A DNA stretch of 46,841 nucleotides. Origin: a virus (Duplodnaviria > Caudoviricetes). The stretch's first letter is position 1. Every line of letters begins with the position of its first letter. The notes under the pieces were generated by a model that saw only the letters and a program-made list of their open reading frames with translations, did no database searches and had not been told where the DNA came from. The translations under genes and the position numbers were made by a program. Where the stretch lies: IMG/VR virus record IMGVR_UViG_3300027533_000247, positions 1 to 46,841 of that record; one strand, written 5' to 3'. Of this stretch, positions 9,214 to 44,922 are shown one piece after another.

Positions 9214-9396
9214 TCATATATTTTTCTCCAATTGAATTATTACTGATTTAATAGTAGATAACTCAAAATTTAATTTTGATAACCATTGTATAACTTCTAA
9301 AAAATTATCAGCATTAATTAAATAATTCTCAATTTGATTACCGTTAGCTGATTCTCTTTCAATTCTAATTGACCATTTAGGAATTATTCTTAACAT
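9214..9396 (-). CDS. Hypothetical protein
   Basis: 60-aa ORF overlapping the CSD gene. Confidence 0.5.
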   Translation of the reverse strand: MLRIIPKWSIRIERESANGNQIENYLINADNFLEVIQWLSKLNFELSTIKSVIIQLEKNI

Positions 9397-9607
9397 TTAT
9401 CTTCACCCTACACTTTATAGCAACTAGTCCTTTTTCGCCTTCAATTACATCGAATTCAACCGTTATTACGCCCTTCTTATGTAACTCTAATAATTCAGCC
9501 CAACTACCTTTATACTCACGTCTATGTAAAAATATATCTCTGTTGGCTCCGCATACTATGAAGGCGAAGTCCCTATCTGGATTTAGGTTTCTAATCTGTC
9601 CTATCAT
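9377..9607 (-). CDS. Cold-shock domain (OB-fold) protein
   Basis: RNP1-like RDFAFI, RNP2-like DIFLH, and VEFDVIEGEKGLVA. Confidence 0.85.
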   Translation of the reverse strand: MIGQIRNLNPDRDFAFIVCGANRDIFLHRREYKGSWAELLELHKKGVITVEFDVIEGEKGLVAIKCRVKINVKNNS

Positions 9608-15551: not shown

Positions 15552-15866
15552 TCATTCCATCACCTTTATTTTAATAGCCTGATAACCGGGTCTGTATTGA
15601 GCCTTAATTAATTGAAATTCAACTCTCATTCTTTTCCGTAATTCTGGAAATCTTAATGTATCTTGTTTCAGTCCAGTCCAATGAAAGAATATACGTTCAA
15701 AGGGTAATTGTTCCGATGTAATGAATCCATATCCCTCTTTACGCACATTTGAGATTACACCGGATATGTTATCTCCTATTTGTGCCTTAGTTAATTCTTC
15801 TTCTTTCTTTTCTTCAACTCGTAGTTTACCTCGTGTGAGGTCATTCATTTTTTCCCAAATGCTCAT
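15552..15866 (-). CDS. Cold-shock domain protein
   Basis: KEGYGFI (RNP1), IFFHWT (RNP2) and RVEFQL. Confidence 0.9.
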   Translation of the reverse strand: MSIWEKMNDLTRGKLRVEEKKEEELTKAQIGDNISGVISNVRKEGYGFITSEQLPFERIFFHWTGLKQDTLRFPELRKRMRVEFQLIKAQYRPGYQAIKIKVME

Positions 15867-27183: not shown

Positions 27184-27218
27184 TGACAGAATTTGTCAGG
27201 TGACGACAATTGTTGTCA
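27184..27218. promoter_or_regulatory. Two TGACA-N5-TGTCA operator/enhancer sites
   Basis: TGACA-GAATT-TGTCA (27184-27198) and CGACA-ATTGT-TGTCA (27204-27218), 20 bp apart. Confidence 0.65.
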
Positions 27219-27791: not shown

Positions 27792-27989
27792 TTATTCCTC
27801 AGGAATTGTAACAGACCAACCTTGAGCCAATATGGCTCTAAAGATTGATTCATTCAAATGAATTGTGGAACAGATAACTAATTGGTCAATGTCATCTGTA
27901 AGTAAATTGCGGCGGTAAAGTGTAATTGTATACATTATATGTCCTATTTGGTTTGATTTGTCCTGATATTCTTGCGACATCCGACTCAA
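27792..27989 (-). CDS. Hypothetical protein
   Basis: ORF starting inside the left arm of the palindrome. Confidence 0.45.
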   Translation of the reverse strand: MSRMSQEYQDKSNQIGHIMYTITLYRRNLLTDDIDQLVICSTIHLNESIFRAILAQGWSVTIPEE

Positions 27990-28456
27990 TCCCTACTTAA
28001 TCCCCACCGCATCCCTACTCAATGCCGACCTTACGCCGGGTGACTGAATATGGCCTAACCTATTGATTCTATTACTCTTGCGCGTAGGGATACTACTCTC
28101 CCCCCCTGTCTAATGACCTCCCCAATTTCCAATAGATTGGATTGGGGTTGTCCTCAAATGTGGACAGTGTGGTATGGTTATGTCTATATAGTATATATAA
28201 TATTATATATACATATATTATATATATTTTTTAACATATACCACAATAAGACACTAACCCCCAACTACCATAATGTCCACTCTAGAGGACACCCTAAATC
28301 CAAAACCCCGTATAACCCATGAGGCTTCTAGGGGTAGGGTAGGTAGTATGGTGTCTCCCAAATCCTTTGTTCACATAGGGTTAACCCCGTTTGGGTCACC
28401 CGGCATGAGGTAGGGGTTAAGTAGGGATTAACCTGGGATTAAGTAGGGATTCGGAC
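27980..28456. other. Putative replication origin: large imperfect palindrome with an AT-rich core and iteron-like repeats
   Basis: Mirror pairs 27988-28004/28435-28451, 28035-28044/28395-28404 and 28160-28166/28274-28280 share an axis near 28220; near-pure A/T core at about 28185-28236. Confidence 0.7.
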
Positions 28457-28698
28457 GAAGTCTCAAAAATAATCCCTACAAATTCCATAATAACTACCTA
28501 AATTTAGTTAATGAAGTCTGATTTTCTGGATTGACCATCATGTAGCCAATCTAAAATGTCTTGTCCAGAAGGTTGGCCACGAAGAATATTGATAATTTCA
28601 CCTTCATATAACATGAAAGTAAATACAATACCTTCAATTAATTGAATTTTAATTGTTCTCATTTTTTCTCCTTTATTGGTTTACTAAGCACTTAATTA

Positions 28699-28771: not shown

Positions 28772-29272
28772 TTATCCGTTGGACTGACTAAGAATCGCCT
28801 CAACTTGAGCACGAGCCATAGCTTCAGTAATGCGCCCTTCACCTGCGCGCATGAAATCACGCACAAGACGTTCCTTAATATCTGCGACAGGAACAGTGGA
28901 ACTGAGAGGCTTATGAGCAAGCACTTCAGACTGATACGCATTACTACGCGCATCTGCCTTCAGCTTACGATTGATTAGGTCGAGAAGGGTAAGTCCCTTT
29001 TCCTCCATAATCTTATTCGCCTGCTCATCATTTTCGACGACACGGAAGGAGAATGTCTTGTCATACTTAGTGCCTGGCTTGACATCTTCCTTAATCGTAT
29101 CGGCTGGAACAGTGAAAGACAACACGTCAGAATCAACAATGTATCCTTCAGCGTCCCGAGTAACTTCTGCGTATTCCTCAACATTAACGTCGGTCATAAT
29201 ATGTAACCTATCCCTCTTTTTGAGGGTAAGTTTAACCCGACGTAAAATGTTCTTTCTAATCGTGCTATTCAT
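28772..29272 (-). CDS. Probably highly expressed early protein of unknown function (may start at MTDVNV, 29197)
   Basis: Strong RBSs, upstream consensus promoter, GC-richer codons, downstream hairpin. Confidence 0.75.
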   Translation of the reverse strand: MNSTIRKNILRRVKLTLKKRDRLHIMTDVNVEEYAEVTRDAEGYIVDSDVLSFTVPADTIKEDVKPGTKYDKTFSFRVVENDEQANKIMEEKGLTLLDLINRKLKADARSNAYQSEVLAHKPLSSTVPVADIKERLVRDFMRAGEGRITEAMARAQVEAILSQSNG

Positions 29273-29546: not shown

Positions 29547-29699
29547 TAATTTCCTTTCCTACAGTTGACCGACACAAGGGATTGACTAACTACTAAAGTC
29601 TATAGATTTATTTCTACGAACGCGCTTAGGGACGCGCTATAGATGCTTTAGTAGTTAATGAATCCCTCGTCACACCCTATAACATAGGAAAGGATTAAT
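29545..29699 (-). ncRNA. Rod-like ~155-nt hairpin sequestering an RBS
   Basis: Stems 29552-29561/29685-29694, 29577-29583/29661-29667, 29587-29598/29646-29657 and 29599-29605/29637-29643. Confidence 0.65.
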
Positions 29700-29720
29700 T
29701 AGTTACTCAATTATTTGGGG

Positions 29721-29957
29721 TTAAAAATCTAACGCTGCTACATTTCTGCCCGGCCTACCATTTGGGGTAGTAGCAGTAAATCTTAGACTGTAATCTTCGT
29801 CGTCTACAGTCTTAAGATTAGTGTAACCTGAGTTTTCAATGTGTTTTTCTACTACCGTTTTAGCCTCTGAAGTAGTAGATACTTCCACATTGGAGATAAC
29901 ACGAAAATCAAGATTGTTGCCTAAGCTATACAACCTGAGAACCATTTTCTCATCCAT
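29721..29957 (-). CDS. Hypothetical early protein
   Basis: 78-aa ORF between structured regions. Confidence 0.6.
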   Translation of the reverse strand: MDEKMVLRLYSLGNNLDFRVISNVEVSTTSEAKTVVEKHIENSGYTNLKTVDDEDYSLRFTATTPNGRPGRNVAALDF

Positions 29958-30347
29958 CGTCGCACTCTACTTTCTGAGTGACTAATAAATCCCTTCCTAC
30001 ATTACAGGTATGGGATTCAAACTTACCTCACAACAATTTACCGGCCCCTGTGTATTTTCCCTCAGGGCCGATTGTGAGTTTCGACGGCATAGAATCAACA
30101 AGTAGGGCTAGCCTGCACCCTGTCCGGTATCCATTACTACACTAGCTGTCCGAGTGAAAATCACGGCACTGTTAGTGGTTCGTAGAATCCGTAGTTGACT
30201 ACTGTCTCATGTATGCCCAACCTGCAAGGTCTTACGATAGTCTGTAGACGTTACTTGCATTCATCTGCATACACTCCGAGCATTGATAGGCCCGTAGCCT
30301 ACCGCTTGTGGCCCGCGTATTGTGTAACTCGCTACTACCTCGCTTTC

Positions 30348-30617
30348 AAGATTGTGGATTTAACAGGATGCTCGGGTTAACTAGTTACCGCGATAATGTG
30401 ATGTTTCATCCATTGACCGCTTACCCAAGTAGTCTGCAATTTCCTCAGGAGTAGCGCGCCTAGCTGAAACTAAATTCCAACCATTTCGCCATTCCCAAGT
30501 AACCATTTCGTAAATTTCTTCGCCTGTGTAAGCTACTTTACACTTGGTTACTTCACTGCAAGTCTTACGTTCCATAGTATGTCTCATTTCTGAGCATCCT
30601 ATAAAATCCACAATCTT
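30348..30617. repeat. 26-bp inverted repeats (30348-30373 and 30592-30617) flanking a small ORF
   Basis: AAGATTGTGGATTTAACAGGATGCTC vs the reverse complement AAGATTGTGGATTTTATAGGATGCTC, 24/26 identical. Confidence 0.85.
30381..30587 (-). CDS. 68-aa hypothetical protein enclosed by the inverted repeats
   Basis: MRHTMERKTCSEV...RRATPEEIADYL; first ORF after the leftward sigma54 site. Confidence 0.5.
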   Translation of the reverse strand: MRHTMERKTCSEVTKCKVAYTGEEIYEMVTWEWRNGWNLVSARRATPEEIADYLGKRSMDETSHYRGN

Positions 30618-30667
30618 TAGTTTTCAAATTGCTGCTCCGCGCATGATGCCCGGATACAGACATACAA

Positions 30668-30684
30668 TGCATAGTGAATGCCAA
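30668..30684 (-). promoter_or_regulatory. Leftward sigma54-type promoter
   Basis: TTGGCAT-TCACT-ATGCA. Confidence 0.65.
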
Positions 30685-30743
30685 CAGGAATGAGTGAAAA
30701 CAGGCCCATTTTTGAGTTTCGCCAAACGTAAAACGCTCCCGAC

Positions 30744-30836
30744 TGACAGGTTGTGTCACCCATCGCGCTAACCCCAGTCCTATCAACAGGTTAGCCCATG
30801 ACATAATGTGTCACCATACTGACAATATGTGTCACC
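30744..30836. promoter_or_regulatory. Three TGACA-N4-GTGTCACC palindromic sites with an IHF site
   Basis: Sites at 30744-30758, 30799-30813 and 30820-30834; TATCAACAGGTTA at 30781-30793 matches WATCAANNNNTTR. Confidence 0.75.
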
Positions 30837-30952
30837 AAATAAAGCGCGCAGTTATATGACTCATACGACAATGCAAATATATGCATCTATATGACACTAA
30901 CGTATTCTATTGTGTATAGGGGGACTATACCCGTCTTTATGGGACTCCAATG

Positions 30953-30969
30953 TTGGCATGAGATTTGCA
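30953..30969 (+). promoter_or_regulatory. Rightward sigma54-type promoter (late arm)
   Basis: TTGGCAT-GAGAT-TTGCA, close to the TGGCAC-N5-TTGCW consensus. Confidence 0.75.
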
Positions 30970-31136: not shown

Positions 31137-31165
31137 TTGACAATCGAGTGGAGATATGAGACGAT
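31137..31165 (+). promoter_or_regulatory. Sigma70-type promoter with extended -10
   Basis: TTGACA-17 nt-GACGAT, preceded by TGn. Confidence 0.55.
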
Positions 31166-31221
31166 TCGAGCAGGGCATAGGCCCATCAAATTACGATTCA
31201 TATTATAACGGGATATAATAT

Positions 31222-31836
31222 ATGCCCCTAGGAATTGTATCAAATAGGGATTTTGAATTAGAAAGAAATAATTCTGATCCTGAAATTAGACAACACAATA
31301 ACAATAATATACCCCGCACTTCACATGAACCAGTCATAACAGGTGAAGTAATCAATAATCCCACCGTCGGTAGAACTCCTGAAGTCCCAGATATTCCAAT
31401 TAGTCTGAAAAAGATTATTGGTGAAACCCATGCAATTGAAGGATTTCAGCGTGCCAAAGAATTGGCTGATTCATTTGGGGGATTAAGCCAACCCACCTTA
31501 TCTACGCTAGGCAATGGTTCTACGTCACGAGGGACTCATAAGTCACGAGCAGGTAATGAATTAGTTGAACATATTAATAATAGAAAGACTAAGATAAGTA
31601 ATAAGGCATTAAATAAAATTAATCTTGCATTAGCCAACATGAATGAGGATAAATTTGCCGAAGCAGATTTAAAAGAGTTAAGCGCGGTGGCAAAAGATAT
31701 GGCAGTAGTTGTAGGACAAATGGCTCCTAAGGAAAAAGACGACGCGAAAGTGGAGCCAGTTCAATTTCATTTTTACGCTCCAACAGTGCGTAATGAACAG
31801 CACTATGAAGTTATAGTGGCGAAAGATAATTACTGA
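31222..31836 (+). CDS. Possible terminase small subunit / HTH protein
   Basis: First late gene; HTH-like AKELADSFGGLSQPTLS; helical core with a beta C-tail. Confidence 0.4.
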   Translation: MPLGIVSNRDFELERNNSDPEIRQHNNNNIPRTSHEPVITGEVINNPTVGRTPEVPDIPISLKKIIGETHAIEGFQRAKELADSFGGLSQPTLSTLGNGSTSRGTHKSRAGNELVEHINNRKTKISNKALNKINLALANMNEDKFAEADLKELSAVAKDMAVVVGQMAPKEKDDAKVEPVQFHFYAPTVRNEQHYEVIVAKDNY

Positions 31837-44700: not shown

Positions 44701-44922
44701 ATGAATGGTATTGGTTGGGCAGTTAAAGAAATGCACAATGGTAATAAAGTAACTCGACGGGGTTGGAATGGTAAAGATATGTATTTAGCTTTACAAATTC
44801 CTGATGAAAATTCTAAAATGTCTTTACCTTATGTTTATATGAAAACTGTAGATAACAAATTGGTTCCTTGGTTGTGTTCTCAAACAGATTTATTATCTAT
44901 TGATTGGGAACTTGTTAACTAA
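44701..44922 (+). CDS. tad2: DUF2829 / Tad2-like anti-defence nucleotide sponge
   Basis: G.KV.R.GWNGK.MY...PW..SQTDLL..DW signature. Confidence 0.85.
   Translation: MNGIGWAVKEMHNGNKVTRRGWNGKDMYLALQIPDENSKMSLPYVYMKTVDNKLVPWLCSQTDLLSIDWELVN

Follow-up and report, generated by a model that had tools for sequence, protein, structure and literature searches.

The region between the early and late gene blocks of this phage likely allows the PilR of the infected host, acting with sigma54 and IHF, to fire the early (leftward) transcript. The region, hereafter the hub, is made of two outward-facing sigma54 boxes flanking three palindromes (Table 1), and is in our view a real, conserved, and probably functional element. 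Four lines of evidence bear on this reading. First, the boxes and palindromes are maintained together in the clade of the phage. Second, the leftward box is in helical phase with the palindromes. Third, the palindrome precedes the type IV pilin genes of unrelated bacterial lineages. Fourth, the combination of palindrome and outward box recurs in many viral loci.

The window, i.e. the whole stretch of DNA that was analysed, is an entire virus record of 46,841 bases whose ends overlap. It encodes a family A DNA polymerase, a primase, a SNF2 helicase, a Sak4-like annealing protein, and two tRNAs, and the virion genes include the terminase large subunit (34909) and the major head protein (41475). 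Early and replication genes run leftward from ~30,600, virion genes run rightward from 31,222, and the cumulative GC skew turns at ~31,000, near the divergence of the two arms. Two cold-shock-domain genes and a Tad2-like (anti-defence) gene lie at 9377-9607, 15552-15866, and 44701-44922. The public sequencing runs containing the hub region are labelled as groundwater, sediment, freshwater, or soil. The TerL of the window has no close relative among cultured phages (best full-length identity ~24%, partial matches up to ~31%) and no match in 401 Desulfobacterota genomes. The first-pass annotation had reported no GAFTGA motif, sigma factor, or RNA polymerase, and the searches agree: Pfam and PHROGs give no sigma factor, RNA polymerase, or sigma54 activator among the 74 ORFs of the window, and no GAFTGA-type motif occurs in its six frames. 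Neither an activator nor a PilR-like helix-turn-helix (HTH) was found in 11,091 six-frame segments from the window and 89 phage loci. The six frames of the window also lack a prepilin motif, and the hub palindromes drive no pilin there. A search of Rfam returned the two tRNAs only, with no known RNA family within the hub.

Table 1. Coordinates of the hub and of the neighbouring features in the window.
Feature	Position	Strand	Remark
Conserved second palindrome pair inside the early arm (one exact, one with 1 mismatch, 20 bp apart)	27184..27218	.	Without adjoining sigma54 box
Conserved early gene	28772..29272	-	Left border of the hub in relatives
First ORF behind the early box, 68 aa	30381..30587	-	Enclosed by a 26-nt inverted repeat, 30348-30373 / 30592-30617; z = -6.5
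Leftward (early-arm) sigma54 -24/-12 box, TTGGCATTCACTATGCA	30668..30684	-	Predicted start 30657 (G)
Pilin-type palindrome proximal to the early box	30744..30758	.	Half-sites invariant in the alignment; centre 94 bp upstream of the predicted early start
IHF consensus site among the enhancer copies	30781..30793	+	Exact match
Second pilin-type palindrome	30799..30813	.	Exact motif match
Third pilin-type palindrome	30820..30834	.	With the second forms the 21-bp doublet also seen before bacterial pilin genes
Conserved element GGACTATA..CTTTA.GG.ACYC, immediately ahead of the rightward box	30922..30948	+	Invariant or near-invariant columns, 10 sequences
Rightward sigma54 -24/-12 box, TTGGCATGAGATTTGCA	30953..30969	+	Predicted start 30980
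Sigma70-like promoter before the late operon (TTGACA, 17 nt, GACGAT, TG extension)	31138..31166	+	TTGACW-17-xAxxxT match in 22/24 related hubs
First late gene, helical protein with a helix-turn-helix-like segment	31222..31836	+	Upstream of terL

Re-scanning confirmed what had been annotated for both sigma54 boxes: their coordinates, the TG immediately before each, and the exact GG-N10-GC spacing. They are the only two strict matches to TGGCA-N6-WTGCW in the window, for a mean of 0.68 in 60 simulated windows. The centres of the palindromes lie at -94, -149, and -170 from the predicted left start and at -153, -174, and -229 from the right one. Enhancer-dependent sigma54 promoters are recognised by palindromic activator sites ~80-200 bp upstream and by an exact GG-N10-GC box conserved over a variable spacer, and both are found here. 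The boxes and palindromes are thereby supported as conserved enhancer-type sigma54 elements that would need an activator from the host.

The three annotated palindromes, spaced by 55 and 21 bp within 91 bp, were correctly placed, but the true dyad is TGACA-N5-TGTCA (15 bp), and the extra G and CC of the previous description fall outside its symmetry. The count of three between the boxes also stands, but a fourth copy, at 27184, had been missed; the four exact copies of the window compare with a simulated mean of 0.12. This fourth copy belongs to a pair that is conserved in one relative (L003, ~2829-2865) and that lies where a possible leftward sigma70 promoter would have its -35 region; judging from its placement, it could be repressive or a second activating site. 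The annotated IHF site does match the consensus exactly, but such matches are near chance level in the window (9, against a simulated mean of 7.0), so that the support for the site is positional: it is exact in six of the nine members of the clade, degenerate at the same place in the other three, and conserved in position in all eight aligned relatives. In the window and in relatives it lies among the enhancer copies and not, as in the usual layout, between enhancer and promoter. A further motif, AGGCCC/GGGCCT beside A/T tracts, recurs around the hub at 30288, 30702, 31111, and 31179, and it is conserved in the stretch that separates the leftward box from the proximal palindrome.

Relatives were gathered with TerL and with the protein encoded at 31222, and 24 hubs were compared; the tree has 22 rows, chosen by possession of the 31222 gene, because two relatives with truncated proteins were omitted. 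The phage belongs to a clade of nine members (support 100/99), and a check of related contigs proposed in the first-pass annotation comes out in favour of conservation, with both boxes and at least two exact palindromes in 9/9 sampled members. TGGCA, TGC, TGACA, and TGTCA are invariant in the alignments, where the spacers are free and a TAA-N4-TTGAT core is conserved. In all eight aligned relatives the leftward box keeps TGGCA, TGC, and the length of its spacer, the sequence of the latter being free, and the melted region and the +1 are conserved. The rightward box is present in 9/9 clade members, at variable distances from the palindromes. The order of the module inverts among relatives, from site-IHF-pair to pair-IHF-site, which matches the expectation for an enhancer. 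Outside the clade (13 rows), one row has the full layout, nine others have at least one sigma54 box but no exact palindrome, and three have no hub box. Twelve of these 13 distant relatives thus lack exact palindromes and three lack the boxes, and the module is therefore dispensable for the wider family: in this sample of sequences, it is a feature of the clade and not of the family. Some hubs are built differently. Those of L175, L178, L184, and L185 pack three to six sigma54 boxes, in both orientations, into a few hundred bases; L185 has six and lacks palindromes. The more distant L017, L021, and L023 have many TGCAC/GTGCA repeats in place of the pilin-type sites, which suggests a different host or phage regulator.

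The two arms differ in how they relate to the palindromes. Across the nine clade members the leftward box lies 50, 60, 61, 61, 70, 70, 71, 71, or 90 bp from the nearest palindrome, a ladder of ~10 bp with which the gap of the window (60 bp) is in phase. The gaps at host pilin promoters (49-53, 62-65, and 107-111) share this ladder. The corresponding gaps of the rightward box are scattered between 80 and 298 bp, with no ladder. In addition, the sigma70-like promoter lying between the rightward box and the first late gene, which a consensus promoter scan missed because of its weak -10 hexamer, is also present in relatives devoid of the sigma54 box. The previous proposal that a host activator controls both arms is therefore partly supported: the leftward box is phased and conserved, but the gaps of the rightward one form no ladder, and a conserved sigma70-like promoter belongs to the late arm itself. 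From these patterns, the early arm is a well-supported target of the enhancer, the rightward box may share it, and the late genes are probably transcribed from the sigma70-like promoter at 31138 as well.

By sequence and genomic context, the hub palindrome is that of a bacterial type IV pilin enhancer. We found the exact 21-bp doublet at 70 loci of bacterial and archaeal genomes. At 21 of them a type IV pilin gene points away from the doublet within 700 bp; 15 of these 21 have a sigma54 box in between, and at eight a sigma54 activator gene lies immediately upstream in the same orientation. No pilin is in view at the other 49. The loci with pilins are mostly from Desulfobacterota or Deltaproteobacteria, with single records from Acidobacteriota, Fischerbacteria, Planctomycetota, Desulfurobacteriaceae, and Moraxella. 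In a reverse test, pilins were picked by protein similarity alone and the motif (at most one mismatch) was sought within 450 bp upstream, with a downstream control. It was found upstream of 15/28 pilins in Pseudomonadales (control 0/28; two of 30 loci dropped, no pilin start being located), 18/27 in Acidobacteriota (control 0/27; the centre genome, one unpublished genome, and one locus with a short upstream region dropped from 30), and 12/29 in Desulfobacterota (control 1/29; the centre genome dropped from 30). The pooled controls give 1/84 windows. The upstream region of a pilin of Moraxella atlantae (L162 / L215) has six copies of the palindrome, in three pairs, before one promoter. Sites of the FleQ, NifA, GlrR, and NtrC types were considered and dropped as candidates, the stand-alone unit TGACA-N5-TGTCA being the one that tracks pilins.

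Because the motif lies upstream of pilins in three lineages, the palindrome is likely a PilR site. PilR binds the pilA promoter together with sigma54, becomes hyperactive upon pilin depletion (PMC6058289), and is an established activator of pilA in Pseudomonas, Myxococcus, and Geobacter (PMC6058289, PMC6211767, PMC6060248). The ten activators found beside doublets outside WOR-3 have one common recognition helix, RSxR[YH], and receiver, AAA+, and Fis-type HTH domains were confirmed in one doublet-adjacent activator. The PilR label of the activators beside pilins comes from synteny, no NCBIfam cut-off having been passed among the top five families listed, and pilS is not adjacent in the one activator neighbourhood that was extended. 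The accessible portions of the literature searched do not describe TGACA-N5-TGTCA as a PilR site, and no stated PilR motif was found in those of PMC3333781, PMC8041468, PMC8088505, and PMC6211767.

These promoters might be genuinely dependent on an enhancer and on sigma54 and yet answer to another host activator that reads the same palindrome. We regard this as unlikely. The WOR-3 loci indicate that the motif can serve another activator, since the same palindromes and sigma54 box stand there next to a different one and no pilin is present: at L110, L117, L130, L140, and L143 the doublet is accompanied by an activator with a different recognition helix, by a sigma54 box, or by both. Similarly, one acidobacterial genome has three palindrome-plus-box sites before genes other than pilins, and the PilR consensus published for P. 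aeruginosa, quoted as TGT-N11-ACA (PMC8035640), is one base off in spacing, since the phage doublet has the TGTC half-sites but a TGT-N10-ACA junction. Against these points, pilins predominate among the targets that can be identified in three unrelated lineages, and in four of five acidobacterial genomes (one of the four being the motif-selected centre genome) a pilin lies behind the strict palindrome-plus-box. Among the loci without pilin (L110, L112, L117, L130, L140, and L143, from WOR-3 and related), a sigma54 box is usually present; several WOR-3-type loci have a third copy of the palindrome 79 bp away, and in three cases the activator has a different recognition helix. In the host set selected by the doublet the spacers are A/T tracts; those of the phage palindromes are more mixed, close to those of acidobacterial pilin sites and less like the desulfobacterial ones, a weak hint from composition that the host belongs to Acidobacteriota.

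The module is not restricted to this clade. The doublet occurs at 33 loci of viral contigs (24 distinct) and the reversed pattern at one. A sigma54 box faces outward in 13 of the 24 and inward in one, and only 4/33 loci encode relatives of the proteins flanking the hub of the window. At 77 viral loci (58-59 clusters, depending on the flank used) a palindrome has a sigma54 box facing outward at a distance of 60-90 bp, compared with 13 loci (seven clusters) for an inward box and three loci for a reversed palindrome. Several palindromes are present in 37 of 58 clusters and a second, divergent box in ten; none of the 58 has a pilin downstream. The gaps between palindrome and box avoid 65-69 and 77-81 bp in 57/59 cases (p = 0.0002 against uniform), with a best-fitting period of 12-13 bp that is loosely defined in a 31-bp window, and the gaps of 62-65 bp at host pilin promoters have the same phase.

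These regularities also bear on the idea, already raised as an alternative in the first-pass annotation, that the hub is mainly a decoy: it would titrate PilR and the sigma54 holoenzyme and cut pilin synthesis, thereby blocking superinfection, while the phage is transcribed from sigma70 promoters. Conserved sigma70-like promoters on both arms, the three to six boxes in both orientations of four of the relatives mentioned above, and the boxless pair at 27184 would fit such a sink. Yet a sink requires neither orientation nor phase, and the bias towards outward boxes (77 against 13) and their helical phasing weaken this reading. Moreover, an ORF of at least 40 aa starts shortly behind the box in 57/58 clusters, and the melted region and +1 of the leftward promoter are conserved. 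A role primarily as a decoy thus seems quite improbable.

The hub also resembles, in outline, two regulatory regions of lambda. In the cosB of lambda (R3-I1-R2-R1), three terminase-binding sites surround an IHF site, and, as in the hub, the three sites and the IHF site are upstream of a small terminase-like gene; at lambda OR, as in the hub, three sites lie between divergent promoters. The hub differs from both by its host-type palindromes, the lack of family-wide co-occurrence with a phage HTH gene, and the lack of overlap with promoters. The protein encoded at 31222..31836 is likely the small terminase subunit, given its position upstream of terL and its fold. HTH families are a minority among its look-alike clusters, which include unnamed viral clusters, and its structure model (pLDDT 64) gave no significant fold match. 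If this protein bound the three sites, these and the IHF site would form a packaging or replication module, with the sigma54-like boxes serving packaging-coupled transcription. The order site-IHF-site-site upstream of the likely small terminase gene agrees with such a module, as does the separate invariant element beside the rightward box: four contigs (L006, L007, L174, and L186, out of ten contig starts listed) begin within 17 nt of it, and in one sediment run a contig breaks at 30954-30968, at a depth too low to place a terminus. The contig starts are a weak hint that the GGACTATA..CTTTA.GG.ACYC element may be a terminus or packaging signal; they concern that neighbouring element and not the palindromes. 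In addition, 12 relatives that lack exact palindromes retain the HTH gene (it is in 22/22 rows, which were selected for it, and the palindromes in ten), the order of the sites is inverted between relatives, and the same sites precede bacterial pilins and recur in dozens of unrelated viral loci. We consider a packaging module very improbable.

Hardly credible, finally, is a lambda-like switch in which the palindromes are operators of a repressor encoded by the phage. Its appeal lies in the three sites between divergent promoters and in the 27184 pair, placed where a -35 region could be. However, neither a repressor nor an integrase family was found by Pfam and PHROGs among the 74 ORFs, the hub sites are at least 60 bp from either box and overlap no promoter, and the motif is common to host pilin promoters and unrelated phages. 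The suggestion that the 31222..31836 protein acts as a simple repressor on the palindromes is weakened as well, since its gene is kept where they are absent.

The early arm has further features of its own. Long inverted repeats on the minus strand (30348-30617, 29676-30008, and 29574-29670; z = -6.5 and -8.8) enclose small early ORFs, and their stems have a common AGGGAUU/AAUCCCU-type core that is also found in L003, L005, L008, and L178; in the early transcript, such stems may act as processing signals of the RNase III type. A large imperfect inverted repeat at 27967-28471, with an AT-rich centre and short GGGATT repeats, is partly conserved in L003 and L005 and is a possible origin or terminal structure. 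The conserved early protein encoded at 28772..29272 has no family match in Pfam or PHROGs, its model (pLDDT 61) has no significant fold match, and its matches in the atlas are unnamed viral clusters.

In classical sigma54 promoters (glnAp2, nifH, pspA, glmY), a GG-N10-GC box is preceded by palindromes 80-170 bp upstream, activity depends on their phase, and IHF normally binds between enhancer and promoter. The hub is alike in its box, its upstream palindromes, and the phasing of its leftward box, but the IHF site is between enhancer copies and the activator would be supplied in trans by the infected host. The closest comparison is with bacterial pilin promoters, which have the same palindrome, the 21-bp doublet, and an outward sigma54 box in the same helical phase as the hub. 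IHF, which the hub is predicted to use, also takes part in the control of pilA by PilS-PilR and sigma54, a system described for P. aeruginosa, M. xanthus, and G. sulfurreducens (PMC6058289, PMC6211767, PMC6060248, PMC7962754); in Geobacter, IHF mutants have pilA transcription reduced ~20-fold (PMC7962754). The hub differs from the pilA system in that it is carried by a phage, precedes phage genes instead of a pilin, and comes with no pilS or pilR; its two divergent boxes share one cluster of sites, with IHF among them, and the PilR consensus quoted for P. aeruginosa is described differently from the hub dyad. A cis-acting design of this kind is already known, and host sigma54-type promoters were reported for YuA, a lytic phage without its own RNA polymerase (bioRxiv 10.1101/2023.10.13.562163); the accessible part of that report names no activator for them. 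Unlike the hub, the three annotated -24/-12 promoters of YuA (NC_010116, 50 kb examined) lie in its late region, have no strict consensus match, and lack the palindrome. The palindrome is absent from ten of ten cultured phages (YuA, Tunturi 1, 3, 4, and 5, DLP4, F116, 73, Mx8, and phiL7), and BLAST of the hub and of a host doublet against cultured phages gave chance-level matches only. The available portions of the freely accessible literature searched contain no report of phage genes under PilR control.

We propose that the early promoter would work as follows: 1) PilR dimers of the host load on the proximal site and on the 21-bp pair; 2) IHF bends the intervening DNA, so that the proximal site and the pair assemble one AAA+ oligomer; 3) this oligomer loops to the sigma54 holoenzyme at 30668-30684 and opens the promoter near 30657; and 4) the resulting early transcript begins ~40 nt ahead of the first of several long stems enclosing small ORFs. 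More speculatively, type IV pili could be the route of entry of the phage, in which case active PilR would be guaranteed in any cell that has been entered, and the engagement of pili could deplete pilin and raise PilR activity. We put forward a broader scenario only tentatively, and rate it as rather doubtful: many unrelated environmental phages would have copied the pilin enhancer, so that their early genes fire only in piliated cells through PilR and sigma54, with PilR perhaps boosted by pilus engagement, and enhancer modules swapped among relatives would retune these phages to other host activators. In that scenario, the hub would represent a checkpoint for phage gene expression that is coupled to the receptor.

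The usual assumption is that a phage lacking an RNA polymerase of its own begins transcription at constitutive sigma70 promoters. If PilR drives the early genes as proposed, widespread phage early promoters needing a phosphorylation-controlled AAA+ activator of the host would tie infection to the surface sensing of the host. Mutants in pilR, pilS, or rpoN could then resist such phages intracellularly as well as at adsorption; one paper has suggested, on other grounds, that a pilus phage may depend on the activation of PilR to replicate (PMC13170266). TGACA-N5-TGTCA would be a compact candidate PilR site across phyla, and its presence could hint at the receptor and host range of uncultured phages.
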